This document shows positions 3,729 through 57,179 of a stretch of 64,000 nt of DNA, in pieces; positions within the stretch are counted from its first letter, which is position 1; every line of letters begins with the position of its first letter. The notes beneath the pieces were generated by a model. The model ran no database searches. It was not told the DNA's origin and worked only from the letters and a program-made list of their open reading frames with translations. Source of the stretch: an uncultured Candidatus Rokubacteria bacterium. Its GTDB lineage: Bacteria > Methylomirabilota > Methylomirabilia > Rokubacteriales > CSP1-6. The position numbers and the translations under genes were made by a program. The stretch covers positions 704,001 to 768,000 of the forward strand of contig CAVXJS010000011.1 of the NCBI GenBank assembly GCA_963762145.1, in the 5' to 3' direction.

Positions 3729-4934
3729 ATGGCTCACTTCACCTGCGAGGTCGTCTACCGCGGCATCTTCCAGAAGAACCTGGCCGCGCGCATCTGCCGC
3801 GGCATCGTCCTCTCCGCACGGAAAGCCGGGCGGTGGGGGATCGCCTTTGGACGATACGGGGACAGTCCGCAGCGTAACGGCATCCCGGCCAAGGACTTCG
3901 CGATCGTCGCGGACACGCAGGAAGAGCTCGAGCAGAACATGGCGCGCTACGAGCCCAAGGAGGTGGACGTCACGATCTGCGTGGACGACACGCTCTCGAA
4001 GGGCGTGGAGTCCTGGGCCTGGTACGGGCTCCAGCCGATCAACCGGCTCACCATCTCGGGCGGCACGCTCCTGATGACCTCGCTCCAGAGCCCGGCCGCG
4101 CTGCTCAAGGACATCCACAAGAAGGACGCCCCCTACAATCTGGCCCTCATGCGGGCGAAGGCGTCCTTCTCCGGCCTCTGGGTCTACAAGGAGGATCACA
4201 CCGAGGCCCGCATCCTGGGCGCCCTCGCCAAGATCCAGCCCGAGTTCCTGTCGCTTGACGCGGTCTGCGAGGCCATCAAGGAAGCCGAGTGGGGCTCCGA
4301 CCTCAAGGTGGCTTCGGCCCGCAAGGCCCACGAGCGGCTCGAGACCCAGCCGATCAAGATCACCGAGGGCAACTCGGAGATCCCGTACTCCTTCGAGATG
4401 CCCAAGTGGTGGGAGATGCGGGAGGGCGTGACCATCCCGGCCATCCCCATCGGCAAGCCGATGGAGGGAGGCAAGGGGTACGTGCCGGAGCGCAACCCGT
4501 ACTTCAAGAAGTTCACCACCCGCACCATGCGGCCGGTGATCGACTTCGACAAATGCGTGAAGTGCACCCTCTGCTGGATCCAGTGCCCCGACTCCTGCTT
4601 CGACGTGACCCCGGACGGCCTCTACGACGCCAACATGGAGTCCTGCTGCGGCTGCGGTGTCTGCGAGGCGGTGTGCCCGGCCAAGGACTGCGTCACCATG
4701 GTGCGCGAGGACGCCTTCGAGGACAATGCGAGCCAGTGGGAGATGTGGCGGACCGACAAGGCCACCTACAAGACCTGGATGACCGACAAGATCCACAGCA
4801 AGGAGCACATCACCCGGTCCCACGGCTTCCGCTTCCGCGGCCAGTACGAGGAAGAGATCAAGAAGGAGCTGGAGTCGGGCGGCATCGAGATCACCGCGGG
4901 CATTCCCGGCGAGAACGCCGACTCGAAGAAGTAG
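3729..4934 (+). CDS. 2-oxoacid:ferredoxin oxidoreductase fused gamma-delta subunit (oxalate oxidoreductase delta-like)
   Basis: PorC-like N-terminal domain plus two [4Fe-4S] motifs, CVKCTLCWIQCP and CCGCGVCEAVCP. Confidence 0.85.
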   Translation: MAHFTCEVVYRGIFQKNLAARICRGIVLSARKAGRWGIAFGRYGDSPQRNGIPAKDFAIVADTQEELEQNMARYEPKEVDVTICVDDTLSKGVESWAWYGLQPINRLTISGGTLLMTSLQSPAALLKDIHKKDAPYNLALMRAKASFSGLWVYKEDHTEARILGALAKIQPEFLSLDAVCEAIKEAEWGSDLKVASARKAHERLETQPIKITEGNSEIPYSFEMPKWWEMREGVTIPAIPIGKPMEGGKGYVPERNPYFKKFTTRTMRPVIDFDKCVKCTLCWIQCPDSCFDVTPDGLYDANMESCCGCGVCEAVCPAKDCVTMVREDAFEDNASQWEMWRTDKATYKTWMTDKIHSKEHITRSHGFRFRGQYEEEIKKELESGGIEITAGIPGENADSKK

Positions 4935-4949
4935 GGGAGGACTGAGACC

Positions 4950-6178
4950 ATGGCAGTCGAGACCAAGCCCGCAGGAGCGGTCGCCGATCACAAGGAGATG
5001 CTCATCTCCGGCAGCGAGGCGTGCGCCGAGGCGCTGACCCTCGCCGACATCGACGTGGTGACCGCGTACCCGATCCGGCCCTACGACACGGTCATGCAGG
5101 CCATCGCCAAGAAGATCGCCAACGGCCAGCTCGAGGCCGAGTACATCGTCGCCGAGGGCGAGCACAGCCAGTTCGAGATCGTCAAGCACGCCTCCACGGT
5201 CGGCGCGCGCGTGTTCTGCGGCTCGTCCGGCGTCGGCTGGATGTACGCGATGGAGTGCCTGACCGTCACCCCGCCGCTGCGCGTGCCGATGGTGTGCATG
5301 GTGGGCAACCGGGCCCTCGACGACCCGGGCGCCTTCGGCGTCGAGCACAACGACGCGCTGGTCGTCCGTGACCTCGGCTGGATGCTGATCTGGGTCGACA
5401 CGGCCCAGGAGATGCTCGACACGACCCTGCTCGCCTACCGCATCGCCGAGGACCGGCGGGTGTTCCTGCCCATCGCGATCTCGGCGGACGGCGCGTTCCT
5501 GACCCACTCGCAGGCGATCTGCCAGGTGCCGACCCGGGGGCTGGTGGACAAGTTCCTCCCGCGCTACGACCGCGGCGACCTGCAGCTGCACCCGGACAAC
5601 CCGATCACGGTGGCGCCCCAGGCCAACGAGGACTGGGTCATCGAGATCCGGCGGCAGAACGACGAGGCCATGAAGCGGGCCACCAGCGTGATCGAAGAGG
5701 CCTACGCTGATTTCGGAAAGTCATGGGCCGCGGTCCCGAGAACCCGTGGTTCGAGGAGTACATGACCGAGGACGCGGAGATCATCCTGGTCGGCATGGGC
5801 ACGATCTCGCTGCCGATGAAGGTCGGCATCCGCAACATGCGGGCCCAGGGCAAGAAGGTCGGCCTGGTGCGGCCGCGGTGGTTCCGCCCGTTCCCGACCG
5901 ACCGGATGGTGAAGGCGCTCTCGAAGGCCTCGGCGATCGGGGTCATCGACCGCGACTACTCCTTCGGCTCGCCATTCAACTCGGGGGTGGTCGCCAATGA
6001 GATCCGGGCCGCGATGTACAATGCGGACAAGCGCCCGCCGCTCCTGAGCTTCATCTGCGGCCTGGGCGGCCGCGAGGTCACCCTGGAGGATGTCGCGAAG
6101 GCGGCGGACATGTGCTACGCGGCCGCGAAGGCCGGCAAGTCGGATCCCAAGACCCACTGGCTGGGCGTGCGCGAGTAG
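4950..6178 (+). CDS. 2-oxoacid:ferredoxin oxidoreductase alpha subunit (OOR-like); one indel near 5713
   Basis: YPIRP, EGEHSQ and NRALDDPG motifs. ORFs 4950-5765 and 5723-6178 join as ADF(R)KVMGRGPENPW with one extra base; C-terminal RPFP and GLGGRE. Confidence 0.88.
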
Positions 6179-6199
6179 CGCGAGCGAGAGGAGAGCCAC

Positions 6200-7210
6200 A
6201 TGGCCGATACCGCATTCACGAACGCGACGCAGATCCTGGAGCCCTTCAAGGGCGTCAAGAAGGTCACGATCGAGGAGTACTTCACCTCCGGCCACCGCAC
6301 CTGCCAGGGCTGCGAGTCGGCCCTGGTGATGAAGCTCATGGTCAAGGCGGCGGGCCCGCGCACGATCGTGCTCGGCTCGACCGGCTGCATGTACGTGGCC
6401 AACACCACGTACTACACGACCCCGTGGGTGGTGCCGTGGATGCACACCCAGCTCGGCTCCTCGGGCTCCGCCGCCCTCGGCACCGCGGCCGGGCTCAAGG
6501 CGCTGATGAAGAAGGGCAAGATGAAGTCGGAGCCGATCAACGTCATCGCGTTCTGCGGCGACGGCGGCGGCGCCGACATGGGCCTGGGCGCCATCTCCGC
6601 GACGCTGACCCACAGGGAGTACAACTCGCTGATCCTGATGTACGACAACGAGTCGTACGCCAACACCGACATCCAGCTCTCGGGCTCCACGCCGTACGGC
6701 GCGAACACCACGTTCAGCCCGCCGGGCTCGGTCAAGCGCATCATCCACACCCGCTGGAAGAAGAACACCGCGGGCATGCTGGCGGCCGGGCACCCCGAGT
6801 GCCGGTACGTGGCGACCGTCGATGCCTCCTACGCGGTCGAGATGATGAACAAGGTCCGCAAGGCGCTCACCATCGGCGGGCCGACCTTCATCCACTCGCT
6901 CGACCCGTGCCCGAAGGGCTGGGACTACGACCCGATGCTCTCCCACGAGCTGGGCGAGCTGGCTGTCGAGACCGGTATCTTCCCGCTCTACGAGGTGGAG
7001 GACGGCGTGGTGCGGCACTACGGCAAGACGAAGGCGATCGTCGAAGGCCGTCCGCGCAAGCCGGTTCGCGAGTACCTGCTCAAGCAGGGCCGCTTCGCCC
7101 ACTTCACCGAGGAAGACCTCGACTACTTCCAGTCCAAGGTGGACGAGATGTGGGACAAGTGGGAGATCCCGGGCGTGATCCCGTTCTGGAAGGAGCGCCC
7201 CGGCAACTAG
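6200..7210 (+). CDS. 2-oxoacid:ferredoxin oxidoreductase beta (TPP-binding) subunit
   Basis: GHRTCQGC, TGC, GDGG...DNESYANT, PCPKGW motifs. Confidence 0.92.
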   Translation: MADTAFTNATQILEPFKGVKKVTIEEYFTSGHRTCQGCESALVMKLMVKAAGPRTIVLGSTGCMYVANTTYYTTPWVVPWMHTQLGSSGSAALGTAAGLKALMKKGKMKSEPINVIAFCGDGGGADMGLGAISATLTHREYNSLILMYDNESYANTDIQLSGSTPYGANTTFSPPGSVKRIIHTRWKKNTAGMLAAGHPECRYVATVDASYAVEMMNKVRKALTIGGPTFIHSLDPCPKGWDYDPMLSHELGELAVETGIFPLYEVEDGVVRHYGKTKAIVEGRPRKPVREYLLKQGRFAHFTEEDLDYFQSKVDEMWDKWEIPGVIPFWKERPGN

Positions 7211-7260: not shown

Positions 7261-8250
7261 ATGACCCGTCACGGTCGACGCCTCGCGGCGCTGGTCCCGG
7301 CCATCCTGGCCGTCGTATTTCTCTGCTCCCCGGCACAGGCCTGGGAGCCGAGCAAGCCCATCGAGTTCGTGATCCCGGCCGGCACCGGCGGGGGCGCCGA
7401 CCAGATGGCGCGTCTGATTGCGGGCATCGTCGAGAAGCACCGGCTCTCGCCGCGCCCGTTCATCGTGGTCAACAAGTCGGGGGGGGCGGGCGCGGAGGGC
7501 TTCCTCCACGTGAAGGGCAAGAAGGGTGACGCCCACACGATGATCATCACGCTCTCCAACCTCTTCACGACGCCGCTCCACACCGGGGTGCCCTTCGGCT
7601 GGAAGGATCTCACCCCGATCGCGCGCATGGCGCTCGACGAGTTCATCCTGTGGGTGAACGCGGAGACGCCCTACAAGACCGCCAAGGAGTACGTCGCGGC
7701 GGCGAAGGAGCGCTCGGGCGGGGACCGCATGAAGATGGCGGGGACCGGCTCGGCCCAGGAAGACCAGATCCTCACCATCCAGCTCGAGCAGGCCACCGGG
7801 GTGAAGTTCACCTACGTGCCCTTCAAGGGGGGCGGCGAGGTGTGCGTGAACCTCGTCGGCAAGCACGTGGACTCGACGGTCAACAATCCCATCGAGTGCG
7901 CCAGCCACTGGAAGGCGGGGCGGGTGCGCCCGCTGGCCGTCTTCGACACCGCGCGGATCACGGTGCCGGAGTGGAAGGACATCCCGACCGTCAAGGAAGC
8001 GCTCGGCGCGGACATCAGCTATCTGATGCTGCGCGGGATCTTCGGTCCTCCCGACATGCCGAAGGACGCGCTGGAGTGGTACCAGGCCCTGCTGAAGAAG
8101 GTCTACGAGTCCGCCGAGTTCAAGGACTACCTCAACCAGGGGGCCCTCAAGCCTGCCTGGGAGACCGGCCCCGAGTTCGTGCAGTGGCTCGGCCAGGCCG
8201 AGCAGCTTCATCGAGACCTGATGACGAAAGGCGGCCTGCTGAAGAAGTAA
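7261..8250 (+). CDS. tctC: Tripartite tricarboxylate transporter substrate-binding protein (Bug/TctC)
   Basis: Signal peptide ending AQA; KPIEFVIPAGTGGGAD, NKSGGAGAEG, VPFKGGGE. Confidence 0.92.
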   Translation: MTRHGRRLAALVPAILAVVFLCSPAQAWEPSKPIEFVIPAGTGGGADQMARLIAGIVEKHRLSPRPFIVVNKSGGAGAEGFLHVKGKKGDAHTMIITLSNLFTTPLHTGVPFGWKDLTPIARMALDEFILWVNAETPYKTAKEYVAAAKERSGGDRMKMAGTGSAQEDQILTIQLEQATGVKFTYVPFKGGGEVCVNLVGKHVDSTVNNPIECASHWKAGRVRPLAVFDTARITVPEWKDIPTVKEALGADISYLMLRGIFGPPDMPKDALEWYQALLKKVYESAEFKDYLNQGALKPAWETGPEFVQWLGQAEQLHRDLMTKGGLLKK

Positions 8251-8261
8251 CCGTCCCCCGC

Positions 8262-8723
8262 ATGCGGACCGCCGACCTGACGACGGCGCTGATCCTAATG
8301 GCCGGGGGCCTCCTGGTGATCTGGGACGCCCTGCGCCTCGGGATCGGCTGGGGGACCGACGGCCCGCAGAGCGGGTTCTTCCCGTTCTGGCTCGCGGTGC
8401 TGCTCCTCGCATCCTGCGCGGCCATCGCGCTGCAGGCCTGGCGGCGGTCGAGCTCCGCCCCCTTCGTCACCCGGCAACGACTCGCGCCCGTCTTGACCAC
8501 GCTGCTGCCCGCGACCGGCTTCGTGGTGCTGACCCAGTTCATCGGGCTCTACGTGGCCACCTGCGCCTTCATGGCCCTGTACATGCGCTGGATCGGCCGC
8601 TACCCGTGGCTGGCGGTGATCTCGGTGAGCGTGCTCTTTCCGCTGGTGACCTTCGTGGTGTTCGAGAAGTGGTTCCTCGTGCCGATGCCCAAGGGTCCGC
8701 TCGAGGCCTGGCTGGGCTACTGA
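8262..8723 (+). CDS. tctB: Tripartite tricarboxylate transporter small subunit
   Basis: About four TM segments, GPQSGFFPFW and C-terminal VPMPKG; lies between tctC and tctA. Confidence 0.9.
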   Translation: MRTADLTTALILMAGGLLVIWDALRLGIGWGTDGPQSGFFPFWLAVLLLASCAAIALQAWRRSSSAPFVTRQRLAPVLTTLLPATGFVVLTQFIGLYVATCAFMALYMRWIGRYPWLAVISVSVLFPLVTFVVFEKWFLVPMPKGPLEAWLGY

Positions 8724-8726
8724 TTC

Positions 8727-10247
8727 GTGGGATTCGAGAATCTGCTCCTCGGCTTCCAGGTGGCGCTGCAGCCCTACAATCTCGGGCTCGCGGTCCTCGG
8801 CATCACCCTCGGCACCATCATCGGGGTGCTGCCCGGGCTCGGCGGAGCCAACGGCGTCGCGATCCTGCTCCCGCTCACCTTCTCGATGGCCCCGACCTCC
8901 GCCATCATCCTGCTCACGAGCCTCTACTGGGGCGCTCTCTTCGGCGGAGCGATCACCTCGATCCTCTTCAACATCCCGGGGGAGCCGTGGTCGGTGGCCA
9001 CCACCTTCGACGGCTATCCGATGGCGCGGAACGGGCAGGGTGGGGAGGCGCTCACCGCCGCCTTCACGTCGTCGTTCGTCGGCGCGCTCTTCTCGGTCAT
9101 CCTGATCACCCTCTTCGCCCCGATCCTGGCCGAGATCGCGCTGAAGTTCGGGCCCCCCGAGTTCTTCGCGATCCAGCTCCTGACCTTCTCGTCGTTCATC
9201 GGCCTGGGCGGGGGCAACCCGATCAAGTCGCTGGTATCCATCCTGCTGGGCTTCATCCTGGCCTCGGCCGGTCTCGACATCGTGACCGGGCAGCTTCGCC
9301 TGACCTTCGGAATCACCGAGCTGATGAAGGGCTTCGACTTCATCGTGGCCGTCATCGGCCTCTTCGGGGTGGGCGAGATCCTGCTCTCGGTGGAGGAAGG
9401 ACTGTCCTTCCGCGGGGTGAAGGCCGCCATGAACCCGCAGGTGGTCTGGCAGACGTGGAAGAGGCTGCCGCGCTACTACCGCACGTTCATCCGCAGCGCC
9501 TTCATCGGCTTCTGGATGGGCTTCAAGCCGGGTGGGGCCACCCCCGCGTCGTTCATGAGCTACGCCTTCGCCAAGCGCTTCTCCCGGCACCCCGAGCGGT
9601 TCGGCAAGGGCGAGATCGAGGGCGTGGTGGCGCCGGAGACCGCGGCCCACGCGGCGGGAGGCGCGTCCCTGCTGCCCATGATCACCCTGGGCATTCCGGG
9701 CAGCCCCACCGCGGCGGTGATGCTGGGCGGGCTCATCATCTGGGGCCTCCAGCCGGGGCCCATGCTGTTCCGCGAGCGGCCCGACTTCGTCTGGGGCCTC
9801 ATCGCGAGCATGTACACCGGCAACGTGATCGGGGTGCTGATGGTGCTGGCCTTCGTGCCGCTCTTCGCGGCCATCCTCCGGATCCCGTTCCCGATCCTGA
9901 CCCCGCTCATCATCGCGGTCTGCGCGGTGGGCTCCTACGCCGTCCACGACAGCATGGTGGACATCTGGTATATGCTGCTGTTCGGTGTGATTGGCTATGT
10001 GTTCAAGAAGCTCGACTACCCTCTCGCCCCGCTGGTCCTGGCGCTCGTGCTCGGCGATCTGGCCGAGAACGCCCTGCGCCAGAGCCTGATCATGTCGCAG
10101 GGCTCGCTCCTGATCCTGTTCACGCGGCCCATCGCCGGCGCCATCAGCGCGGTGGCCATCTTCTTCTTCGCGCTGCCGCTGCTCGCTCCCTACTGGCGGC
10201 GCCGTCGGGCCCAGGACGAGACGCCCGCGGCGGCGGCGCGGCACTAG
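8727..10247 (+). CDS. tctA: Tripartite tricarboxylate transporter permease
   Basis: GVLPGLG, NIPGEP, TTFDGYPMA, GVVAPETA, LGIPGSPTAA motifs. Confidence 0.95.
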   Translation: MGFENLLLGFQVALQPYNLGLAVLGITLGTIIGVLPGLGGANGVAILLPLTFSMAPTSAIILLTSLYWGALFGGAITSILFNIPGEPWSVATTFDGYPMARNGQGGEALTAAFTSSFVGALFSVILITLFAPILAEIALKFGPPEFFAIQLLTFSSFIGLGGGNPIKSLVSILLGFILASAGLDIVTGQLRLTFGITELMKGFDFIVAVIGLFGVGEILLSVEEGLSFRGVKAAMNPQVVWQTWKRLPRYYRTFIRSAFIGFWMGFKPGGATPASFMSYAFAKRFSRHPERFGKGEIEGVVAPETAAHAAGGASLLPMITLGIPGSPTAAVMLGGLIIWGLQPGPMLFRERPDFVWGLIASMYTGNVIGVLMVLAFVPLFAAILRIPFPILTPLIIAVCAVGSYAVHDSMVDIWYMLLFGVIGYVFKKLDYPLAPLVLALVLGDLAENALRQSLIMSQGSLLILFTRPIAGAISAVAIFFFALPLLAPYWRRRRAQDETPAAAARH

Positions 10248-10268: not shown

Positions 10269-10963
10269 ATGGATCTGGATTTCCTGATCGGTATCGGCAA
10301 GATCGTGCTCATCGACCTGGCCCTGGCCGGCGACAACGCCCTGGTCATCGCCCTCGCGGTGCGCACGCTGCCCCCCGCCAGCAGCTCCAGGGCCGTATCT
10401 GGGGCACCGTCGGCGCGGTGGGGCTGCGGCTGGCCTTCATCTTCATCGTGACCTACCTCCTCGCCATCCCCCTGCTGCAGGTCGTGGGCGGGCTGCTGCT
10501 CGTCTGGATCGCGCTCAAGCTCGTGCTCCAGACGGATGCGCACGGCGGCGAGAGCGTGAAGCAGGGCACGACGCTGCTCGGGGCCATCTGGGTCATCCTC
10601 GTGGCCGACGTCGTCATGAGCCTCGACAACGTGATCGGGGTCGCCGCCGCCGCCGAGGGCGACATGCGCCTGGTCGTCTTCGGCATCGCGCTGTCCATCC
10701 CGATCGTGGTCTGGGGGTCCGGGGTGCTGGCCCGGCTGATGAACCGGTACCCGTGGATCATCCTGGTGGCGGGCGGCATCCTGGGCGAGGTGGCGGGCAA
10801 GATGATGCTGCACGACCAGTTCATCGTGAGCCGGTTCGGCAACTCGCCCGACGCGGTGGAGTTCGCGCTGCGCATTGGCCTCGCGATCGCCATCATGCTG
10901 GTGGGCTGGCTGGTCACGCGCCGGCGGGCCGCGGTGGCGAACGACGGGGCCGCCGCACGGTGA
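10269..10963 (+). CDS. TerC/YjbE family membrane protein; indel in C-run 10371-10376
   Basis: IDLALAGDNALVIALA in the first ORF and ADVVMSLDNVIGVAAAA in the second; joined by one base. Confidence 0.88.
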
Positions 10964-11724
10964 GCTCGGCCGGCGAGGGGCCGAGTCTCGAGCCGGTCAA
11001 GTCCACCCGGATCTACGAGGAGATCGTCCGCCAGGTCAAGCAGCTCATCGGGGAAGGGCGGCTCAAGTCCGGTGACCGCCTTCCGCCCGAGCGGGACCTG
11101 GCCGAGAAATTCATGGTGAGCCGCACCTCGGTGCGGGAGGCGCTCCGGGCGCTGCAGAGCCGCGGCCTCATCGAGATACGGGCGGGAGAGGGCGCCTTCA
11201 TCCGCGACGTCTCGGTGGAGACGCTGATCGAGCCGCTGGCCCTGGTCATCTTGCCGCATCGCGAGGCGGTCGGCGAGCTCTTCGAAGCCCGCCGGCTGCT
11301 GGAGCCCGCCATCGCGGCCCTCGCCGCGCGGCGGGCGACGCGCGAGGAGATCCAGGAGATGGAGCGCATCCTGGAGGACCAGGCCAAGGAAGTGGCGGCC
11401 GGCCGGACCGGGATGCTCCAGGACGGGGCGCTCCACGCGGCCATCGCCAACAGCGCCCACAATCGCGCCATCACCCGCATCGTGAACGCCCTGATGGATC
11501 TGCTCACCCAGAGCCGCGAGGAGTCGTTGCACACGCCCGGCCGGCCGACGCGGTCTCACGAGGACCATCGCCGCATCCTGGAAGCGGTGCGCCGGCGCGA
11601 CGAGGTGGCGGCTCATCGCTCGATGCTCGACCACCTCATCGCGGTGGAGACCCTGGTGACCGGAGCCCATGCCGACGATCGGAGCGCGACGCCCGTCGCC
11701 CCCAGGAGAAAGCCGCGCCCCTGA
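10960..11724 (+). CDS. FadR/GntR family transcriptional regulator (PdhR/LldR-like, FCD domain)
   Basis: wHTH motif LKSGDRLPPERDLAEKFMVSRTSVREAL; FCD residues D-x-x-x-H and H; GTG overlaps the upstream stop. Confidence 0.93.
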   Translation: MSSAGEGPSLEPVKSTRIYEEIVRQVKQLIGEGRLKSGDRLPPERDLAEKFMVSRTSVREALRALQSRGLIEIRAGEGAFIRDVSVETLIEPLALVILPHREAVGELFEARRLLEPAIAALAARRATREEIQEMERILEDQAKEVAAGRTGMLQDGALHAAIANSAHNRAITRIVNALMDLLTQSREESLHTPGRPTRSHEDHRRILEAVRRRDEVAAHRSMLDHLIAVETLVTGAHADDRSATPVAPRRKPRP

Positions 11725-22944: not shown

Positions 22945-25900
22945 ATGAGCCTATCGCGGCGTGATTTCCTGAAATACGCGGGTTCGACCGGCGCCGGTGT
23001 CGCCGTCGGAGCCGCGACCATCGACCTCAAGCCGGTCCAGGCAGCCGCCACGGACCTCAAGATCAAGGAAGCCAAGGTACATCCCGGCGTCTGTCCATAC
23101 TGCGCCGTCGGCTGCATCCAGCTCGTGTACTCGAAGGGCGACAAGATCATCGACATCGAGGGGCATCCGGACACCCCGCATACCCTCGGCCGGCTCTGCC
23201 CCAAGGGCGCGGCGACCATCCAGCTCTCCAATAACCCGCTGCGGCCCACCAAGGCCATGTACCGGGCGCCCGGCTCGGACAAGTGGGAGGAGAAGCCGCT
23301 GGACTGGATGTACGAGCAGATCGCGAAGCGCTACTACGAGGTCCGGGAGAAGCACTTCATCGAGAAGGAGAAGAACAAGGACGGGCAGGAGGTGCTGGTC
23401 AATCGCCTCGACGCCATCGCCTCCCTCGGCTCGGCCTGCATCGACAACGAGGAGTGCTACCTCCTCAGCAAGCTCAACCGCGCCTTCGGCATCGTCTACC
23501 ACGAACATCAGGCTCGAGTCTGACACTCCGCCACGGTCCCAGCTCTGGGGACCACGTTCGGGCGGGGCGCGATGACGACGAACCTGATCGACATCCAGAA
23601 CTCGGATGTCATCATGGCCACCAGCAACTTCGCGGAGAATCACCCGGTCGGCTTCCAGTGGGTGATGAAGGCGAAGGAGCGCGGGGCGAAGTTCATCCAC
23701 GTCGATCCGCGCTTCACCCGCACCAGCGCGGTGGCCGACATCCACGTGCCCCTGCGTTCGGGCACCAACATCGCGTTCTTCGGCGGGCTCATCAGCTACG
23801 CGATCGCCAGCAACCTCTTCTTCAAGGACTACGTCGTCCACTACACGAACGCCTCGTTCCTGATCGATCCCGCCTTCAAGACCGCGACCGACGGCGGCGG
23901 CCTCTTCACCGGCCTCGAGCCGACCGGCAAGGGCGGCGCCGACCCCCACGTGTCGGAGGCCTACAAGCGGGACTCGTGGAAGTACCAGCTCGACGGCGAA
24001 GGCAATCCCAAGCGCGACCTGAGCCTCCGCGATCCGCATAGCGTGTTCCAGCTCATGAAGCGGCACTACAGCCGCTACACCCCCGAGATGGTGGAGCGGG
24101 TGTGCGGGATCCCGAAGGAGAAGTTCGTCCAGGTCGCCAAGCTCTACTGCGAGAACAGCGGGCCCGAGAAGACCGGGACCATCACCTACGCGCTGAACCT
24201 GACCCAGCACACCAACGGGGTCCAGAACATCCGCGCGCTCTGCATGCTCCAGATCCTGCTCGGGAACATCGGGCGGCCGGGCGGCGGGGTGGTGGCCCTG
24301 CGGGGCCACGCCAACGTGCAGGGGGCCACCGACCTCGAGCTGCTCTACCACGAGCTGCCCGGGTACCTGCCGATGCCGCTCCGGGAGCTGCACCCGGATC
24401 TCAAGACGTACCTGGAGAAGGTCACCCCCAAGGGCGGCTTCTGGGTGAACCTGCCCAAGTTCATGGTGAGCCTGCTCAAGGCCTTCTACGGCGACGCGGC
24501 CACCGCCGAGAACGACTACGGCTACCAGTGGCTTCCCAAGCGGGCGTCCGCGGACGCCTACAGCCACCAGCACATGTTCGTGGATATGTACAAGGGCGTC
24601 ATCAAGGGCTTCCTCTCCGACGGGCAGAACCCGGCGGTGGGTGGGCCCAACGCCAAGCTGGCCCGCGCCGCACTCGGCAAGCTCGACTGGCTGGTGGTGA
24701 AGGACATCTTCGTCACCGAGACCGCGGAGTTCTGGAAGGCGCCGGGGGTGACCGCCAAGGACATCAAGACCGAGGTGTTCTTCCTGCCCGCCGCGCCGGC
24801 CGCCGAGAAGGACGGGAGCCTCACCAACACCATGCGGCTGATCCAGTGGCACGAGAAGGCGGTCAACCCGCCCGGCGACGTGACGTCGGACGCCGAGTTC
24901 TTCGTGAGCCTCGCCAAGCGGCTGCAGAAGCTCTACGCGGGGTCCAAGAAGGAGCGGGACAAGGGGTTCCTGGCCGCGAGCTTCGAGTACGGCGACAACC
25001 CCAAAGAGCCGAACATGGAGCTGGTCCTCAAGGAGATCAACGGGTTCGCGACCCAGGAGATCACCGACAAGGACGGCAAGGTGGTCTACAAGAAGGGGCA
25101 GGCGCTCAACACCTTCGCCCACATGACCGACGACGGCAAGACCGCGGGCGGGTGCTGGATCTACACCGGCGTCACGGTGGAGGGCGCCGACGGCAAGCTG
25201 ATCAACAAGGCCAACCTGCGCAAGCCGGCCGACGACAAGGACTACCTGGCCCACGGCTGGGGGTTCGCGTGGCCGGCCAACCGGCGCATTCTCTACAACC
25301 GCGCCTCCGCCGATCTCAACGGCAAGCCCTGGAGCGAGAAGAAGAAGCTGATCTGGTGGGATCCGGAAGCCCCCGGCAACGAGCCGGACAAGAAGGGCAA
25401 GTGGGTGGGCCTCGACGTGCCCGACTTCAACGCGTTCCTGGCTCCGGACGCCAAGAACGGCGACAAGCCGTTCATCATGCGCGCGGACCTGGTCGGCGCC
25501 TTCTTCGGCCCGCTCAACGACGGGCCCTTCCCGGAGCACTACGAGCCGGTGGAGTCGCCCACCAAGAACCTCCTCTCCAAGCAGCAGATGAACCCGGTGG
25601 CCAAGATCTGGAGCGTGCCCGACCAGAAGAACGACCTGGCCCCGGTCGGCTCGCCCGACTATCCCTATGTGGTCACGACCTACCGATTGACCGAGCACCA
25701 CCTCTCGGGCGTCATGTCGCGCTACCTGCCCATGCTCGCCGAGCTGTTCCACTCCCACTTCGCCGAGATCAGCCACGAGCTCGCGGCGGAGCTCGGGATC
25801 GAGAACGGGGAGCGGGTGACCGTGCTCAGCCCGCGAGGCAAGGTCCACGTGACCGCCATGGTCACGCACCGCCTGAAGCCGTTCATGATCGACGGCAAGA

Positions 25901-26055
25901 AGACCCACCAGATCGGCATCCCGTGGCACTGGGGCTACAACGGCATCTCCAAGGGCGACATCACCAACGATCTCTCCGCGACGGTGGGAGACCCGACGGT
26001 CTACATCCAGGAGACCAAGGCCTTCCTCTGCAACGTGAAGAAGGGGGAGGTGTAG
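22945..26055 (+). CDS. fdnG: Formate dehydrogenase-N-type alpha subunit, selenocysteine-containing (UGA at 23521-23523)
   Basis: Tat signal SRRDFLK; FS0 motif CPYCAVGC...CPKG; HQARV-U-HSATV at the Mo/W ligand; ORFs 22945-23523 and 23572-26055 are in frame; ALRGHANVQG. Confidence 0.95.
23535..23553 (+). promoter_or_regulatory. Bacterial SECIS hairpin
   Basis: GGTCCCAGCTCTGGGGACC stem-loop starting 11 nt after the in-frame UGA. Confidence 0.75.
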
Positions 26056-26057
26056 CC

Positions 26058-26837
26058 ATGGCCCGCACGCTCGCGATGTTCACGGACACCTCCCTCTGCA
26101 TCGGCTGCCGGGCCTGCCAGGTAGCCTGCAAGCAGTGGAACGAGCTGCCGATGGAGGAGCCGCAATGGACCGGCTCCTACCAGAACCAGGCCCACTTCAC
26201 CGACAAGACCTACCGGCTCGTGCGCTTCATCGAGAAGCCGCAGGCGAACGGCGAGCTGCAGTGGCTCCTCATGTCGGACGTCTGCAAGCACTGCGCGCAG
26301 GCGGGGTGCCTCGACGCCTGCCCCACCGGCGCGATCTACCGGACCGAGTTCGGGACGGTCAACATCAACCAGGACGTGTGCAACGGCTGCCGGTACTGCG
26401 TCAGCTCGTGCCCGTTCGGGGTGGTCTCGTTCAATCACGACACCGGCCGGGCCAACAAGTGCACGTTCTGCAACGACCGCATCCACAACGGGCTCGGGCC
26501 GGCCTGCGCCAAGACCTGCCCGACCGAGTCCATCCAGTTCGGATTCCGCGACGAGCTCGCCGCGAAGGCCGAGAAGCGCGTGGCCAAGCTCAAGGAGATG
26601 GGGTACTCCGGCGCCCAGCTGTACGGCGTCGACGACAAGGGCCCCCTCGGCGGGCTGAACGCCTTCTTCCTCCTGCTGGACAAGCCGTCGACCTACGACC
26701 TCCCCGAGAAGCCGCTGCTCCCGCAGCGCAATGTCCTGGTGGACTCGGTGCTGGCGGTGGGCTCGGCGCTGCTCGTCGGGGTGGGCGCGATCATGGCCTT
26801 CCGCGAGCGGGGCGGGCAGGGGGACGATCATGCTTAA
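26058..26837 (+). CDS. fdnH: Formate dehydrogenase iron-sulfur (beta) subunit
   Basis: Four [4Fe-4S] motifs (CIGCRAC, CKHC, CNGCRYC, CTFC...CAKTCP) and a C-terminal TM anchor. Confidence 0.92.
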   Translation: MARTLAMFTDTSLCIGCRACQVACKQWNELPMEEPQWTGSYQNQAHFTDKTYRLVRFIEKPQANGELQWLLMSDVCKHCAQAGCLDACPTGAIYRTEFGTVNINQDVCNGCRYCVSSCPFGVVSFNHDTGRANKCTFCNDRIHNGLGPACAKTCPTESIQFGFRDELAAKAEKRVAKLKEMGYSGAQLYGVDDKGPLGGLNAFFLLLDKPSTYDLPEKPLLPQRNVLVDSVLAVGSALLVGVGAIMAFRERGGQGDDHA

Positions 26838-27648
26838 GACCCCCGACTGGCACCTGCTGATCGTCTGGTACTTCTTCCTCGGCGGCATCGCGGGCGGCGC
26901 CTATTTCACCGCGGCGATCGCGGACAACTTCGGGGGCCGGCGCGACCGTAACGTGGTGCGCACCGGCTACATCCTGGCGCTGCTCATGATCGGCGTCTGC
27001 GGCATGCTCCTGATCCTCGATCTCGGCACCCCGAGCCGCTTCCTGAACATGATGAAGGCCTTCAAGTTCTGGGACCCGATGTCGATCGGCGCCTGGATGC
27101 TCGGGGTCTTCGGTCTCTTCGCCTTCGCATCCTCCGCGCTGTCGCTGTCGCCCGACGAGCGGCGGGCCTCCCTCCGGCGGAAGATCAGCCTGGTCGGGAT
27201 CATCTTCGGCTTCTTCCTCGCGAGCTACACCGGCGTGCTCCTGAGCGCCACCGCGCTGCCCCTCTGGAGCGACGCGCGGCTCATGGGGGCCTTGTTCCTC
27301 GCCTCCGGCGCCTCCACCGGGATGGCCGCGATCGTGCTGCTGCTCTACCTGAGCGGCGAGTCGGGAACCGAGAGCTTCGAGAAGGTCAACCGGGCGGATC
27401 GGCTGGCGATCCTGTTCGAGCTGGCGGTCCTCGCGCTCTTCCTCGTGTGGCTCGGCTCCGCGGCCACGCCGCTGACGTCCGGCCCGATGGCGCCGCTCTT
27501 CTGGGGCGGCCTCGTCGTGGCGGGGCTCCTGGTTCCGCTCGGGATCGACTTTTTCGCCACCCGCTGGGTTCCCGCCGCGGTCTCGGCGGTCCTGGTCCTG
27601 GTGGGCGGGTTCATCCTGCGCTACGTCGTGGTGATGACGCACGCCTGA
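26830..27648 (+). CDS. NrfD/PsrC family membrane anchor
   Basis: WHLLIVWYFFLGGIAGG, DLGTPSRF, PMSIGAW, SYTGVLL, GGFILRY. Confidence 0.9.
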   Translation: MLKTPDWHLLIVWYFFLGGIAGGAYFTAAIADNFGGRRDRNVVRTGYILALLMIGVCGMLLILDLGTPSRFLNMMKAFKFWDPMSIGAWMLGVFGLFAFASSALSLSPDERRASLRRKISLVGIIFGFFLASYTGVLLSATALPLWSDARLMGALFLASGASTGMAAIVLLLYLSGESGTESFEKVNRADRLAILFELAVLALFLVWLGSAATPLTSGPMAPLFWGGLVVAGLLVPLGIDFFATRWVPAAVSAVLVLVGGFILRYVVVMTHA

Positions 27649-37892: not shown

Positions 37893-38000
37893 TCACAAGG
37901 CTGGAGCCCGGAAACACGTCTTTTGCCCCGGTCTTCATCCTCAGCACGCCTCGTCGAAGGAGTATGTCTACCTGCTGCGCCGAGTAGGGCGGAGGAGTGG

Positions 38001-41000
38001 ATGAGCGGGATGGATCGTCGGTCGTTCTTCAAGATCGTGGCGACCACGGGCGCCGCTGCCGCGGCCGGGGGCTGCGGACAGTCGGCCGAGCAGCTCATCC
38101 CGTACGTCATTCCGCCGGACAACATCGTCCCCGGCATCCCCGCCTACTTCTCGACCGTCTGCCGCGAGTGCCCGTCGGGCTGCGGCCTCATCGCCAAGAA
38201 TCGCGACGGGCGCGTCATCAAGCTCGAGGGCAACCCGGAGCACCCCTCCAATACCGGTGCACTCTGCGTGCTGGGCCACGCGGGTCTGCAGGCCCTCTAC
38301 CACCCGGATCGCTTCCGCGGCCCGCTGAGCGGCGGCAAGCCGGTGGCGTGGGCCGACGCGGAGAAGCAGCTCGCGGACAAGCTGGGCGCGCTCGCGAAGG
38401 GCAAGCAGGGCGGGCGCATCGCGGTGGTGAGCGGCCTCGAGACCGGCAGCCTCGCTCGCCTCATGGACGAGTGGGTGCGACTGCTCGGCGCGCGCACGCG
38501 CATCGCCTACGAGCCGCTCGGCTACGAGTCCCTGCGCGCCTCGAACCGGATCGCCTTCGGCCGCGACGCGATCCCCGACTACGCGATCGGCGAGGCCACC
38601 TACCTGGTCTCCTTCGGCGCGGACTTCCTCGAGACGTGGCTGAACAGCGAGGGGTACACCGTCGACTTCGCTCGGATGCACGCCTTCTTCCAGGGAAGGC
38701 AGGGGACCTTCGTGCACGTCGAGCCGCGCATGTCGCTGACCGCGGCCAACGCGGACGAATGGCTGCGCAATGCGCCCGGCACCGAGGGCGCGCTCGCGCT
38801 GGCGATGCTCAAGGTGATCGTGGACGAGGGCCTGCAGGCGCCAGGGGCCGATCTGACCACCCTCCGCGCCGCAGTCCGCGCCGCCGACGTCGAGGCGGCC
38901 GCCACGGCCTCGGGCGTCCCCGCCGAGACCATCAAGCACGTCGCGCGTGACCTCGCCAAGGCGAAGGCCGGCCTGGTGCTGGGCGGCGGCATGGCCGCGA
39001 CCTCGACGGCGTCCACCGAGGCGCTCGTCGCGGTCAACCTGCTCAACGCGGCGATCGGTGCGCTGGGCACCCGTGTGCGCTTCGGCGCCGCGTCGCCTTT
39101 CAGCCGGGTGAGCCCGTACTCGGACATGGTGGCGCTGACCCAGGCGATGGCCGCCGGGCAGATCGAGGTGCTGGTGCTGGTGGACGTCAACCCGGTCTAC
39201 GCGATGCCGCCCAAGTCGGGTTTCGCCGAGGCCCTGGCCAAGGTCCCGCTCGTGGTGTCACTCGCGAGCCGGCCCAACGAGACCACCGCGCGGGCGCACC
39301 TGGTGCTGCCGACGCTGCACGCGCTCGAGTCCTGGGGCGACTACGCCTCCGAGGAGGGTGTGCTCGGGCTGATGCAGCCCACGATGGGTCCCGTGCAGAT
39401 CGACGGCAAGGCGGTGGACGGCAAGACCGCCGGCGACGTCTTCCTCGGCGTCGGCCGGCAGGCGCTGGGGCTCGAGGCCGGGAAGGGCCCGCTCCGGTGG
39501 GCCTCCTTCCAGGACTTCATCCGGGACGAGTGGCAGAAGACCGCCAAGGAGTACGGCAGCACCGGATCGTTCGCGGATTTCTGGGACGCGGCCCTGCGGC
39601 GCGGCGGCGTGTGGCGCACCGGCGCGGCCCCGGCGGTCTCGCTTCGCCCGGAGGCCGGACGGATCCAGGGCGGCGCGCCGAAGCTCGAGGGCGGGGGCTC
39701 GCACGTGCTGATGATCTATCCCTCGAGCCGCTTCTACGACGGCCGGGGCGGCGACCTGCCGTGGCTGCACGAGGTGCCGGACGGGATCACCCAGGTTGCG
39801 TGGGACTCGTGGCTCGAGATCCCGGCCGAGACCGCCAAGCAGATGGGGATCGCGCGGGGCGATCTGGTGAAGGTGACGTCCCCGCACGGTGCCATCGAGC
39901 TGCCCGCCTACCCGACCGAGCTCGTCCACGCCGGCGCGGTGGCGGTGGCGATGGGGCAGGGGCACAAGTACACGGGCGCCTTCGCGCAGCGGGGCAACTC
40001 CGCGACCGGCACCCAGAGCCAGGTCGACTTCCTGAACGTGGGCGCCAATCCGATCGAGCTCCTGCCCGCCGCGCCGGACCCGTCCTCGGGCGGGCTGCCG
40101 CTGCTCGCGGTGAAGGTCTCGCTCGCCAAGACCGGCGGTCGGCGCCCGCTCGCGATCCCGCAGGCCCAGTTCGACCAGGACGATCGCGAGATCGCCCAGT
40201 GGGTGCAGCTCGGCGCCGCGCGCGAGCTCGAGCTGCGGGGCAAGCCGCCCGAGCACGCCGATCATCCGCGCATGTACCCGCCGGTGAAGTATCCGGAGTA
40301 CCGCTGGGGCATGACGGTGGACGTGGACCGCTGCACGGGCTGCCAGGCCTGCGTGGTCGCCTGCCAGAGCGAGAACAACGTGCCGACGGTCGGGAAGGCC
40401 CAGGTGGCCTACGGGCGCATCCAGCACTGGCTGCGGGTGGAGCGCTGGCAGGAAGGCACGTCCGCCAAGCCGGTCAACATGTTCCTGCCCATGTTCTGCC
40501 AGCACTGCGAGATCGCGCCGTGCGAGCCGGTGTGCCCGGTCTACGCCGCCTATCACACGCGCGAGGGCCTCAACGGACAGGTCTACAACCGCTGCGTGGG
40601 CACGCGCTACTGCGGCAACAACTGCCCCTACCACGTGCGGAAGTTCAACTGGTTCAACTACACGTGGACCGCGCCGCTCGACGTGCAGCTGAACCCGGAC
40701 GTCACGGTGCGGCAGCTCGGCGTGATGGAGAAGTGCACCATGTGCGTCCAGCGGATCGAGTCCGCCAAGGGCGCGGCGCGCGAGGCGGGCCGGCAGGTGC
40801 GCGATGGGGACATGCAGACCGCCTGTCAGCAGACGTGCCCGACCCGGGCCATCACATTCGGGAACCGGAAGGACGGCGAGGCGATGGTCTCCAAGCTGTC
40901 GCACTCGACCCGGAGCTACACCGTGCTCCACGAGCTGGGCACGCTCCCGGGGGTGAACTACCTCAAGAAGGTCGTCCGCGCCGAGCCGGCGGGCGGTCAC

Positions 41001-41018
41001 GGGAAGGCGGGGCACTAG
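38001..41018 (+). CDS. actB: Alternative complex III subunit B (molybdopterin-oxidoreductase-like domain fused to an Fe-S domain)
   Basis: Tat-lipoprotein signal DRRSFFK...AGGC; GRVIKLEGNPEHP; FGADFLETW; ACQSENNVP; YNRCVGTRYCGNNCPY; GVMEKCTMC. Confidence 0.88.
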   Translation: MSGMDRRSFFKIVATTGAAAAAGGCGQSAEQLIPYVIPPDNIVPGIPAYFSTVCRECPSGCGLIAKNRDGRVIKLEGNPEHPSNTGALCVLGHAGLQALYHPDRFRGPLSGGKPVAWADAEKQLADKLGALAKGKQGGRIAVVSGLETGSLARLMDEWVRLLGARTRIAYEPLGYESLRASNRIAFGRDAIPDYAIGEATYLVSFGADFLETWLNSEGYTVDFARMHAFFQGRQGTFVHVEPRMSLTAANADEWLRNAPGTEGALALAMLKVIVDEGLQAPGADLTTLRAAVRAADVEAAATASGVPAETIKHVARDLAKAKAGLVLGGGMAATSTASTEALVAVNLLNAAIGALGTRVRFGAASPFSRVSPYSDMVALTQAMAAGQIEVLVLVDVNPVYAMPPKSGFAEALAKVPLVVSLASRPNETTARAHLVLPTLHALESWGDYASEEGVLGLMQPTMGPVQIDGKAVDGKTAGDVFLGVGRQALGLEAGKGPLRWASFQDFIRDEWQKTAKEYGSTGSFADFWDAALRRGGVWRTGAAPAVSLRPEAGRIQGGAPKLEGGGSHVLMIYPSSRFYDGRGGDLPWLHEVPDGITQVAWDSWLEIPAETAKQMGIARGDLVKVTSPHGAIELPAYPTELVHAGAVAVAMGQGHKYTGAFAQRGNSATGTQSQVDFLNVGANPIELLPAAPDPSSGGLPLLAVKVSLAKTGGRRPLAIPQAQFDQDDREIAQWVQLGAARELELRGKPPEHADHPRMYPPVKYPEYRWGMTVDVDRCTGCQACVVACQSENNVPTVGKAQVAYGRIQHWLRVERWQEGTSAKPVNMFLPMFCQHCEIAPCEPVCPVYAAYHTREGLNGQVYNRCVGTRYCGNNCPYHVRKFNWFNYTWTAPLDVQLNPDVTVRQLGVMEKCTMCVQRIESAKGAAREAGRQVRDGDMQTACQQTCPTRAITFGNRKDGEAMVSKLSHSTRSYTVLHELGTLPGVNYLKKVVRAEPAGGHGKAGH

Positions 41019-41019
41019 C

Positions 41020-42384
41020 ATGAGCGCGCCTCCCGCGCAGAGCGCGCCCGCGCCCGCCCAGGCCACCTGGGCCGACGTCAACCGTGACGTCATCCGGACC
41101 ATCGGGATGCCGAGCGACAAGTACTTCGCCTGGCTGTGCCTGGTGGTCCTGGTCCTCTGCGCGGGCTTCGGCGCGTGGGCCTACCAGATCTGGGTCGGGA
41201 TCGGCGCGGCGGGCAAGCGCACCCCCCAGATGTGGGCGATGTACATCACCACCTTCGTGTTCTGGATCGGTATCGGTCACGCGGGGACCCTGATCTCCGC
41301 GGTCCTCTACCTGTTCCGGGCGAAGTGGCGGACCTCCATCTACCGCGGGGCGGAGGCGATGACCGTGTTCGCGGTCATGACCGCGGGCCTCTTCCCCCTG
41401 ATCCACGCCGGCCGCATGTGGTTCGCGTACTGGCTCATGCCGTACCCCAACCAGCGCTACCTCTGGCCCAACTTCAAGTCGCCGCTGGTGTGGGACGTGT
41501 TCGCGATCTCGACCTACCTGACCATCAGCGTGGTCTTCTTCATCGTGGGCCTGGTGCCGGACATCGCGGCCCTGCGCGACAACGCGACCGGCTACAAGCG
41601 GAAGATCTACGCGGTGCTCTCGCTCGGGTGGGAGGGCTCGGACCACCAGTGGCGCCACTACCGTCGGGGCTACGGGCTCCTCGCGGCCCTGGCCACTCCG
41701 CTGGTGCTCTCGGTGCACAGCGTGGTGTCCTTCGACTTCGCGATGGCCCTGGTACCCGGCTGGCACTCCACGCTGTTCCCCCCGTTCTTCGTGGACGGGG
41801 CCATCTTCTCCGGCTTCGCGATGGTGCTGGTGCTGATCCTGCCCATGCGCTACCTGTTCAACTGGTATCCCTACATCACCGACAAGCACCTGGACGCGAT
41901 GGCCAAGCTGACCCTCGTGACCAGCCTGGTGCTGACCTACTTCTACGTGTGCGAGGTCTTCACCGCGTGGTACTCGGGAGACCACTTCGAGCGGGCCAGC
42001 GTGTTCGCCAAGGCGAGTCAGCAGTACGCGTGGGCCTACTGGGGCATGTACTTCTGCAATTGCCTGGTGCCTCTCGTGCTGTTCATCCGCCGCGCCCGCA
42101 CCCACGTGGTGACCCTGTACGTGGTCTCGATCTTCGTGCTGATCGGCATGTGGCTCGAGCGCTTCAACATCATCGTGCCCGGCCTCGCCCACGACTTCTA
42201 TCCGTATACGTGGGGGACGTACTACCCGACGATCACCGACTCCGCGATCGTCATCGGCTCCTTCGCCTGGTTCTTCCTGCTCTTCCTGGGGTTCATCCGC
42301 GTGATGCCGTCGCTCTCCATCGTGGAGGTCAAGGAAGTGCTGCCGCACCCCCTGAAGCACGCCAGCCACGCGGGGCACCACTGA
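41020..42384 (+). CDS. actC: Alternative complex III subunit C (NrfD family, quinol-binding)
   Basis: FVFWIGIGHAGTLISA, AEAMTVFAV, NFKSPLVWD, ATPLVLSVHSVVSFDFA, GMWLERF. Confidence 0.92.
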   Translation: MSAPPAQSAPAPAQATWADVNRDVIRTIGMPSDKYFAWLCLVVLVLCAGFGAWAYQIWVGIGAAGKRTPQMWAMYITTFVFWIGIGHAGTLISAVLYLFRAKWRTSIYRGAEAMTVFAVMTAGLFPLIHAGRMWFAYWLMPYPNQRYLWPNFKSPLVWDVFAISTYLTISVVFFIVGLVPDIAALRDNATGYKRKIYAVLSLGWEGSDHQWRHYRRGYGLLAALATPLVLSVHSVVSFDFAMALVPGWHSTLFPPFFVDGAIFSGFAMVLVLILPMRYLFNWYPYITDKHLDAMAKLTLVTSLVLTYFYVCEVFTAWYSGDHFERASVFAKASQQYAWAYWGMYFCNCLVPLVLFIRRARTHVVTLYVVSIFVLIGMWLERFNIIVPGLAHDFYPYTWGTYYPTITDSAIVIGSFAWFFLLFLGFIRVMPSLSIVEVKEVLPHPLKHASHAGHH

Positions 42385-42385
42385 G

Positions 42386-42913
42386 ATGGCGACGACCGGC
42401 ATGACGACGGGCACCGCCAACGTGCTGGGCGTCTTCGCTCACGTGGACACCACGCTGCAGGCCATCCGCGATCTGCGGGCCAAGGGTTTCTCGAACCTCA
42501 CCGTCTACACGCCGGTGCCGGTCGAGGAGATCGAGCACGAGATCGACAAGGTGGAGCCGCTGTCGAAGGTGCGCCTCTTCACCGTGATCGGCGCCCTGAC
42601 CGGGACCGCGACCGGTTTCTTCCTCACGATCTGGACGTCGCTCAAGTGGGAGCTGGTGACCGGCGGCAAGGCGCCGGTGTCCATCCCGCCGTTCATCATC
42701 ATCGCCTTCGAGCTCACGATCCTGCTCGGCGGTCTCGCCACCGCGCTCGCGGTGCTGATCCTGGCCCAGCTCCCCAAGCTCAAGCCGTCGCCCACCTACG
42801 ATCCGCGCTTCACGGTGGATCGCTTCGGGGTCGCGGTCGCCTGTGCCCCCGACAAGGTCGACTCGGTGCAGTCGGTACTGTCGGCCGCGGGCGCCGAGGA
42901 GGTGCGGCGATGA
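42386..42913 (+). CDS. actD: Alternative complex III subunit D (DUF3341)
   Basis: YTPVPV, GGKAP, FELTILL, YDPRFTVDRF. Confidence 0.88.
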   Translation: MATTGMTTGTANVLGVFAHVDTTLQAIRDLRAKGFSNLTVYTPVPVEEIEHEIDKVEPLSKVRLFTVIGALTGTATGFFLTIWTSLKWELVTGGKAPVSIPPFIIIAFELTILLGGLATALAVLILAQLPKLKPSPTYDPRFTVDRFGVAVACAPDKVDSVQSVLSAAGAEEVRR

Positions 42914-55015: not shown

Positions 55016-55060
55016 GGGTGCCAGGGTAAGGACACGAAGGGAAACGAGAGGCCCGAGAAC

Positions 55061-57175: not shown

Positions 57176-57179
<4 letters not shown>
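56261..57179 (+). CDS. argF: Ornithine carbamoyltransferase; indel near 56444
   Basis: [38 protein letters not shown]. Confidence 0.93.

Follow-up and report, generated by a model that had tools for sequence, protein, structure and literature searches.

A sister lineage of oxalate oxidoreductase in Rokubacteria and other bacteria: a candidate coenzyme A-independent oxalate:ferredoxin oxidoreductase

The window analysed here is a 64,000-nucleotide stretch of an uncultured Candidatus Rokubacteria genome (assembly GCA_963762145.1, contig CAVXJS010000011.1, positions 704,001 to 768,000; G+C about 69%), and all positions below refer to it unless stated otherwise. Near its start lie three genes for a 2-oxoacid:ferredoxin oxidoreductase (OFOR) that resembles the oxalate oxidoreductase (OOR) of Moorella thermoacetica. 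All three are on the plus strand: a gamma-delta fusion of 401 amino acids (3729..4934; recognised from the list of open reading frames (ORFs), Pfam and AlphaFold/Foldseek), an alpha subunit comprising domains I and II (4950..6178; 409 amino acids with its reading frame restored; Pfam and alignment to PDB chain 5c4i_A) and a beta subunit of 336 amino acids (6200..7210; Pfam, NCBIfam and alignment to 5c4i_C). Gaps of 15 and 21 bases separate gamma-delta from alpha and alpha from beta. Pfam and cysteine motifs place the product in the OFOR superfamily: they reveal the domains that bind thiamine pyrophosphate (TPP), I and VI, together with domain II, a proximal cluster and a pair of ferredoxin-type clusters. 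The source genome (G000), 88% complete, comprises 25 contigs totalling 6.26 Mb. To our knowledge, only one oxalate oxidoreductase has been characterised, and it comes from an acetogen.

The gamma-delta protein begins with MAHFTCEVVYRGIFQKNLAAR (in its start region, VVYRGIFQKNLAAR) and consists of a divergent domain III without the glycine-rich P-loop for coenzyme A (CoA), a linker, a 2x[4Fe-4S] ferredoxin domain at residues 264-331 and a C-terminal extension. Pfam matches are to Fer4 families only and cover the same residues 264-331, with the CxxCxxCxxxC motif occurring twice (residues 276 and 306). A motif search found no G.GG.G anywhere in the 401 amino acids; as a control, FHGRGGQG does stand at the matching place in a canonical OFOR paralogue from a related genome. 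The eight best Foldseek matches of an AlphaFold model of moderate quality (predicted local distance difference test score 66.5) are all OOR delta chains (5c4i_E among them, at E 4.7e-17).

In the alpha subunit, Pfam recognises POR_N (PF01855, 183.6 bits) and PFOR_II (PF17147, 104.5 bits). The motif that usually reads YPITP is YPIRP, with the arginine at residue 43, and further residues of interest are E71, R121 and the loop RALDDPGAFG. Alignment to 5c4i_A equates OOR residues R31, R109, D112, P113, D116 and F117 with R43, R121, D124, D125, A128 and F129, respectively, and both R43 and R121 are invariant in our alpha alignment. The beta subunit matches TPP_enzyme_C (PF02775) and contains the pyrophosphate-binding signature GDGG...DNE. 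Its proximal-cluster cysteines (C35, C38, C63 and C237) align with those of OOR, and OOR beta Asn143 corresponds to N155, within SYANTD, in the alignment to 5c4i_C. A preliminary description of this stretch, made from the letters alone, had pointed to YPIRP in place of YPITP, to a gamma domain that starts YRGIFQKNLA, lacks a glycine-rich loop and is fused to the 2x[4Fe-4S] domain, and to an alanine at the Asp116 position with an aspartate shortly before it. Each of these features is present, D125 standing three residues ahead of A128; the OOR loop that it gave, RTLDPPGDFG with Asp116, is correct according to 5c4i_A, and its view of the architecture as OOR-like agrees with the Foldseek result.

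The reference for all comparisons is M. thermoacetica OOR (EC 1.2.7.10; PDB 5c4i, 5exd and 5exe; NCBIfam NF045790-NF045792). In HMMER searches of the PDB, all three subunits matched 5c4i best (8.7e-57 for alpha, 1.1e-88 for beta and 1.3e-17 for delta), and the Methanosarcina PorABCD structure 9bt4 was second for alpha, beta and delta. Passages of PMC5020499 single out R31, R109, D116 and the YPIRP motif as special features of OOR, and a passage of PMC12654022 gives its catalytic residues as R31 and D116 of alpha, E154 of gamma and N143 of beta. Domain III is described as CoA-binding in part of PMC13768988, its P-loop as the element that binds CoA in Moorella pyruvate:ferredoxin oxidoreductase (PFOR) in part of PMC8091585, and CoA as required by all OFORs except OOR in part of PMC12337175. 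Like Moorella OOR, the window enzyme is encoded by three genes with fused gamma and delta, retains the YPIRP arginine, Arg109 and beta Asn143, has a degenerate domain III without a P-loop, and carries sites for TPP as well as for three clusters of the [4Fe-4S] type. As to differences, alpha identity is about 45%, the gamma-delta protein is 86 amino acids longer (in Moorella, delta stops directly behind the ferredoxin domain), the enzyme comes from a soil bacterium that respires, and the operon is tied to a tripartite tricarboxylate transporter (TTT). PorABCD of Methanosarcina acetivorans (9bt4) belongs to the same superfamily and shares the cofactors, and differs in having threonine in YPITP, a separate gamma subunit that carries a GRGGQG P-loop, CoA dependence and an alpha identity of about 33-38%.

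The extra length at the end of gamma-delta is an extension of about 70 amino acids (residues 332-401, window 4725-4934). Its motif (NASQWE..W...., RSHGF.[YH]RGQY) is kept across phyla in the gamma-delta alignment, and the extension might serve in cluster shielding or partner docking.

Among 1.84 billion representative sequences at 50% identity, 176 matched at E<=1e-30, and a motif table was built from the longer ones. Arginine occupies the YPITP threonine position in two groups only; the other intact rows that span the motif have threonine or serine there. Clade A (12 rows plus the window) shows GNRALDDPGAFG and YPIRPYD. Clade B (12 rows) shows ADR[TA]LDPPGDFG and YPIRPYT, and the PDB OOR falls here by motif. 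An intermediate sequence, P0143, reads LDDPGNFA. Two quick maximum-likelihood trees of 53 and 58 alpha sequences (LG+C20) were evaluated with SH-aLRT, the Shimodaira-Hasegawa-like approximate likelihood ratio test; in these trees, whose groups were defined by a motif also contained in the alignment, support is 100 for A plus B against the YPITP enzymes, 99 for clade B, 92-94 for clade A and 98-100 for core clade A without P0143. Because of these trees, we place the window enzyme outside every sampled characterised CoA-dependent clade, as a sister to OOR and not inside it. The kinship with OOR that was first suspected is thereby upheld by alignment and phylogeny, and the CoA P-loop motif is absent as well.

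The two clades differ sharply round the active site. Among 65 distinct clade-A alphas and 59 clade-B alphas (the latter from one soil lineage at >=86% identity), five positions are invariant within each clade and different between them: 46 (D in clade A, T in clade B), 50 (Q, M), 120 (N, D), 125 (D, P) and 128 (A, D), the last in 100% of the 65 against 100% of the 59. The recurrence of the window's loop in 12 further rows of the motif table, and of D125 and A128 in every one of the 65 sequences, marks them as no chance features. Wider clade-B representatives and the PDB OOR agree with the clade-B states at 46, 120, 125 and 128. In beta, D157, two residues past the catalytic asparagine, is present in 100% of 50 clade-A sequences, whereas clade B, OOR and PorB have glycine. 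Clade A has thus lost two OOR aspartates (108 and 116) and gained three others, which has the appearance of rebuilt electrostatics, not of decay.

Clade A is widespread. Of 41 genomes belonging to the genus, family or order of the source organism, 32 have an orthologue at >=80% identity, and species-representative genomes hold at least 583 stretches that match the clade (at least 599 pattern matches, 583 of which tblastn confirmed as relatives of the query). The best 80 of these at least 583 loci, taken from named genomes and 64-97% identical to an intact relative of the window alpha (P0002), formed the basis of our context survey. They carry the labels Rokubacteria/Methylomirabilota, Acidobacteriota (Terriglobales and others), Armatimonadota, Dehalococcoidia, Acetothermia, Ca. 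Fervidifonticultor, Nitrospinota and NC10, together with one Anaeromyxobacteraceae and one gammaproteobacterial metagenome-assembled genome (MAG). The labels Nitrosocosmicus, Verrucomicrobiia and Thermodesulfobacteriota stand on contigs 82-95% identical to Rokubacterial ones and are probably binning errors. Where close relatives have a database name at all, it is "pyruvate ferredoxin oxidoreductase alpha subunit". Literature searches found YPIRP in an OFOR context only in PMC5020499 and, among the matches listed for oxalate oxidoreductase with Rokubacteria, Acidobacteria or Methylomirabilota, no description of clade A; these phyla are absent from a review of PFOR diversity published in 2026. 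Judging from the sequences, clade A is a large, uncharacterised sister group of the sole known oxalate oxidoreductase.

Downstream of the enzyme, and on the same strand, the window encodes a TTT system: the periplasmic binding protein TctC (7261..8250; PF03401, 99.7 bits), which begins 50 bases past the beta stop, the small membrane subunit TctB (8262..8723; PF07331, 68.3 bits) and the large membrane subunit TctA (8727..10247; PF01970, 510.4 bits). These are followed by a TerC-family membrane protein (10418..10963, plus strand), a conserved neighbour in Rokubacteria, and a GntR-family protein with an FCD domain (10960..11724, plus strand; Pfam GntR and FCD), which is likely the sensor and regulator of the operon. 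The arrangement recurs at 12 loci spread over two families of the order, where gamma-delta, alpha and beta are followed by TctC in 12/12 and TctA in 11/12, then by TerC, and by a GntR regulator in 10/12.

Neighbouring genes across the 80 clade-A loci were called with our own ORF caller and a filter on G+C at third codon positions (GC3); the caller misses some genes, including beta, which a short ORF on the opposite strand displaces at several loci, and the counts are therefore lower bounds. Tct genes were found at 44 loci (TctC downstream of beta at 40), a major facilitator superfamily (MFS) protein at 10, and one or the other at 54. The MFS gene stands directly behind beta and on the same strand at nine of its 10 loci. 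The protein cluster of the GntR/FCD regulator lies beside the enzyme at 47/80 clade-A loci and at 18/80 OOR-type (clade B) loci, and outside Rokubacteria the regulator sits directly upstream of gamma-delta. All 28 MFS proteins tested score 459-531 bits on TIGR04259, the oxalate/formate antiporter model (cut-off 335). Eleven of them adjoin clade A, at the 10 loci just mentioned (eight Acidobacteriota, one Anaeromyxobacteraceae and one NC10), and the other 17 adjoin clade B.

Several further genes were noted in the source genome and around related operons. In the source genome, no oxc reached its cut-off (300 vs 739 bits), frc was a near-miss (483 vs 504), and no OxlT scored above cut-off. An oxc-like TPP enzyme does adjoin an frc-like CoA-transferase at C8:67735-70583 of that genome, both below cut-off and both apparently split. 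A second OFOR lies at C11:781883-783426, about 14 kb past the end of the window; it is apparently of the long-alpha, two-subunit type, with a frame of 635 amino acids. In three Dehalococcoidia loci (L097, L099 and L102), a family III CoA-transferase and a PrpD-family protein precede the clade-A operon and a threonine-dehydratase-like pyridoxal phosphate enzyme stands behind it; the models closest to this CoA-transferase are formyl-CoA transferase and succinate-glutarate CoA-transferase, both below their cut-offs.

Clade-B operons, surveyed at 80 soil metagenome loci (L106-L185, e.g. L113:3484-7203), are built differently. They encode a Cdc48-like AAA ATPase, a separate gamma of 216 amino acids with an OOR-like N-terminus, a 610-amino-acid fusion of GltD-like and delta parts, alpha, beta and three small genes, one of which is receiver-like. 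In the 610-amino-acid protein, a GltD-like module for flavin and nicotinamide nucleotides (FAD/NAD(P)) is joined to the delta domain. The clade-B operons suggest an NAD(P)-linked oxalate oxidoreductase. Clade B shares with the window enzyme the YPIRP motif, the OOR-like gamma N-terminus and the vicinity of the same GntR/FCD and oxalate/formate antiporter protein clusters, which clade-B loci often carry. It differs from the window enzyme in its LDPPGDFG loop with Asp116 kept, its separate gamma, its delta-GltD fusion and its upstream AAA ATPase. In eight of 10 genomes tested, no clade-B alpha was found, the matches being at clade-A level only; these are MAGs, in which a missing gene does not prove absence. 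The eight include all five genomes with an antiporter-linked clade-A operon (best identity 42-47%), or four of four when the unpublished G048 is left aside.

On these grounds we propose, at a probability of about 0.5, that the window enzyme is a CoA-independent variant of oxalate:ferredoxin oxidoreductase in which the role of Asp116 falls to other acids. This reading is favoured by the retained arginines and asparagine, an OOR-like fused gamma-delta that lacks a P-loop, the placement of the clade as sister to OOR, recurrent linkage to uptake systems of the oxalate or tricarboxylate type and to an organic-acid regulator, and the antiporter-linked clade-A operons in genomes where clade B was not found. 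In broader terms, the enzyme probably turns imported oxalate, or a similar small acid, into CO2 without CoA; both the substrate and the CoA independence are predicted from homology and gene context. The preliminary description had offered either an OOR variant or a CoA-independent enzyme for another small 2-oxoacid. The oxalate/formate-type antiporters linked to the operon in other phyla favour the former.

In the proposed mechanism, TctCBA would import oxalate, a role that an OxlT-type antiporter would take at this place in other phyla, and the GntR/FCD regulator would sense the substrate. The enzyme would be a TPP-dependent (gamma-delta/alpha/beta)2 complex with three [4Fe-4S] clusters per protomer. 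Oxalate would be held between alpha Arg43 and Arg121, both of which are conserved, and attacked by the TPP ylide with release of the first CO2. The carboxy-TPP intermediate would then be oxidised by two electrons, which would reach ferredoxin by way of the cluster in beta and the two in delta, followed by release of the second CO2. CoA would be unnecessary, since no acyl group has to be carried and domain III lacks a P-loop. The electrostatic switch provided in OOR by Asp116 may be taken over by acids that are invariant in the clade, namely alpha Asp125, alpha Asp46 or beta Asp157.

A number of observations weigh against this proposal. The NCBIfam OOR models are the best NCBIfam match for every subunit, yet all scores fall below the equivalog cut-offs: alpha reaches 226.1 and 119.2 bits in two pieces against 500 (NF045791), beta 349.2 against 590 (NF045792) and delta 81.8 against 230 (NF045790). 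Three clade-A alphas likewise fail the alpha cut-off (361, 399 and 385 bits), whereas the full-length clade-B alpha P0146 passes it with 583.1 bits. Asp116, described as important to the bait-and-switch mechanism of OOR, is alanine in all clade-A members, and there are further charge changes round the site (Thr34 to Asp46, Asp108 to Asn120, Pro113 to Asp125 and beta Gly145 to Asp157). The part of OOR gamma that includes Glu154 (5c4i_B residues 144-249) could be aligned neither with the single sequence nor with a clade profile. Most of the 28 MFS proteins also just pass a model for L-lactate transporters, at about 320-347 bits, and in the lineage of the window the transporter is a TTT system, for which oxalate is only a putative ligand. 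In Rokubacteria, ppdK and ilvBNC, which are pyruvate-related genes, lie near the operon. Finally, operons of clades A and B stand side by side on two metagenome contigs (L181:219-6682 and L183:1598-10692), and both clades occur together in two of the 10 genomes tested (G044 and G045), which argues against simple redundancy. Because every NCBIfam OOR cut-off is missed and Asp116 is lacking, the enzyme ought not to be classed as OOR proper.

The explanation that survives best beside an oxalate-specific variant is an enzyme that shares the CoA independence of OOR but oxidises another small acid, for instance oxamate, glyoxylate or mesoxalate. The clade-specific A128, D125, D46, N120 and beta D157 would then adapt the pocket, and the enzyme would work alongside a true OOR where both occur, as in the two genomes and on the two contigs just named. 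Some Acidobacteriota loci (L072, L073, L075, L083, L084 and L096) have an FmdA/AmdA-family amidase and a CN-hydrolase flanking the clade-A operon, the amidase being adjacent in five acidobacterial loci and the CN-hydrolase in three. Such enzymes could make or consume amide relatives of oxalate, and the linkage may tie the operon to compounds such as oxamate. However, the link is confined to few loci, and the amidase scores far under the formamidase cut-off (61 vs 500 bits). Both oxalate-binding arginines of OOR are kept, an oxalate/formate antiporter of equivalog level stands with the operon at 10 loci, behind beta, and no clade-B enzyme was found in eight of the 10 genomes. We consider a different substrate less likely than oxalate, the rebuilt active site and the co-occurrence with clade B giving it a real chance. 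A bolder form, in which clade A performs a CoA-free oxidative decarboxylation new to the superfamily (for example of oxamate, yielding carbamate, or of glyoxylate, yielding formate) next to true OOR in "oxalate islands", where D46, D125 and beta D157 would provide a new mode of substrate recognition, appears unlikely.

A conventional, CoA-dependent ferredoxin oxidoreductase for pyruvate or branched-chain 2-oxoacids, yielding acyl-CoA, would fit the database name of the close relatives, the ppdK and ilvBNC neighbours in Rokubacteria and the PorA score of the intact relative P0002 (97% identical in alpha), which is near its OOR score (335 vs 360.6 bits). Against this stand the arginine in place of the YPITP threonine, which a passage of PMC5020499 calls essential for pyruvate recognition, the domain III without a P-loop, and the SH-aLRT of 100 that separates the group from the 25-44 YPITP representatives used. 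Moreover, no PorA, VorA or PorB cut-off of NCBIfam is reached by the enzyme (PorA_Arch 335 vs 550, PorB 287 vs 405), and the ppdK/ilv neighbourhood is not conserved outside the order. An ordinary oxidoreductase of this kind is improbable.

In the window alpha is divided into two ORFs, 4950-5765 (frame 0) and 5711/5723-6178 (frame 2), a split that the preliminary description had not noticed. The run TTT at 5711-5713 is one base short, and an added base joins both halves; with the extra T, alpha reads ...ADFRKVMGRG..., the same as frame 2 does now. All 11 related loci that were aligned carry one more base here and read D-F-R-K-V/I-M-G-R, and open frames of relatives are about 400-414 amino acids or longer, compared with 276 in the source genome. 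Logan contigs from four soil runs (X1, X2, X5 and X6) were compared over 5400-6100; those of X5 have no cover at 5688-5711 and were excluded from the frameshift count. Bridging contigs have an extra base in 3/3 runs from two studies, and none reproduces the reading of the window. In X1 and X2, from one study, a T is inserted behind 5710, with just two other mismatches per 114-117 letters; in X6, from the other study, a G is inserted behind 5719. An argD-like aminotransferase gene (about 55060-56264) and the ornithine carbamoyltransferase gene argF (56260-57179) are also each split over two frames. Since soil contigs and all aligned relatives have the extra base and argD and argF are broken as well, the short TTT run is very probably a homopolymer error of the assembly; the enzyme is most likely intact in nature, and the split most likely not biology. 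A programmed -1 frameshift at GGA-AAG was considered and rejected: the P-site codon would be unable to re-pair, the relatives are one base longer, and short-read contigs restore the frame. That alpha is a recent pseudogene of the source organism, as the identical TTT in the window and in the whole-genome copy with its frame of 276 amino acids and a split alpha in one other genome (G008) would allow, is highly improbable in view of the extra base in soil runs and relatives, a GC3 of 0.94 in both halves, as in intact genes, and the two further frameshifts in the same window, which fit indel errors of assembly.

The window also bears on the lifestyle of the host. Genes for alternative complex III lie at 37923-42913 (an ActB-like molybdopterin/Fer4 protein, an NrfD-type ActC and ActD), with cytochrome c assembly and haem synthesis genes nearby, and because of these three sets of genes the host is, as far as gene content can tell, a respiring bacterium. 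A periplasmic module resembling formate dehydrogenase N occupies 22945-27648. Its catalytic subunit has a twin-arginine translocation signal and an in-frame TGA at 23521-23523, within the motif RV-U-HS (U193), which denotes selenocysteine; behind it come a 4Fe-4S subunit (26055-26730) and, as membrane subunit, an NrfD-type protein (26731-27648). Alternative complex III and the selenocysteine formate dehydrogenase match the earlier suggestion of a respiring rather than an acetogenic host.

Among the exudates of plants and fungi, oxalate is a major one, and surveys of its turnover by microbes usually rely on the marker genes frc and oxc. If our proposal is true, clade A would represent an overlooked, CoA-free and ferredoxin-reducing route of oxalate breakdown in respiring soil phyla, hidden under the label of pyruvate oxidoreductase. 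Lacking the presumed catalytic aspartate of OOR, the clade would also provide a natural test of the bait-and-switch mechanism.

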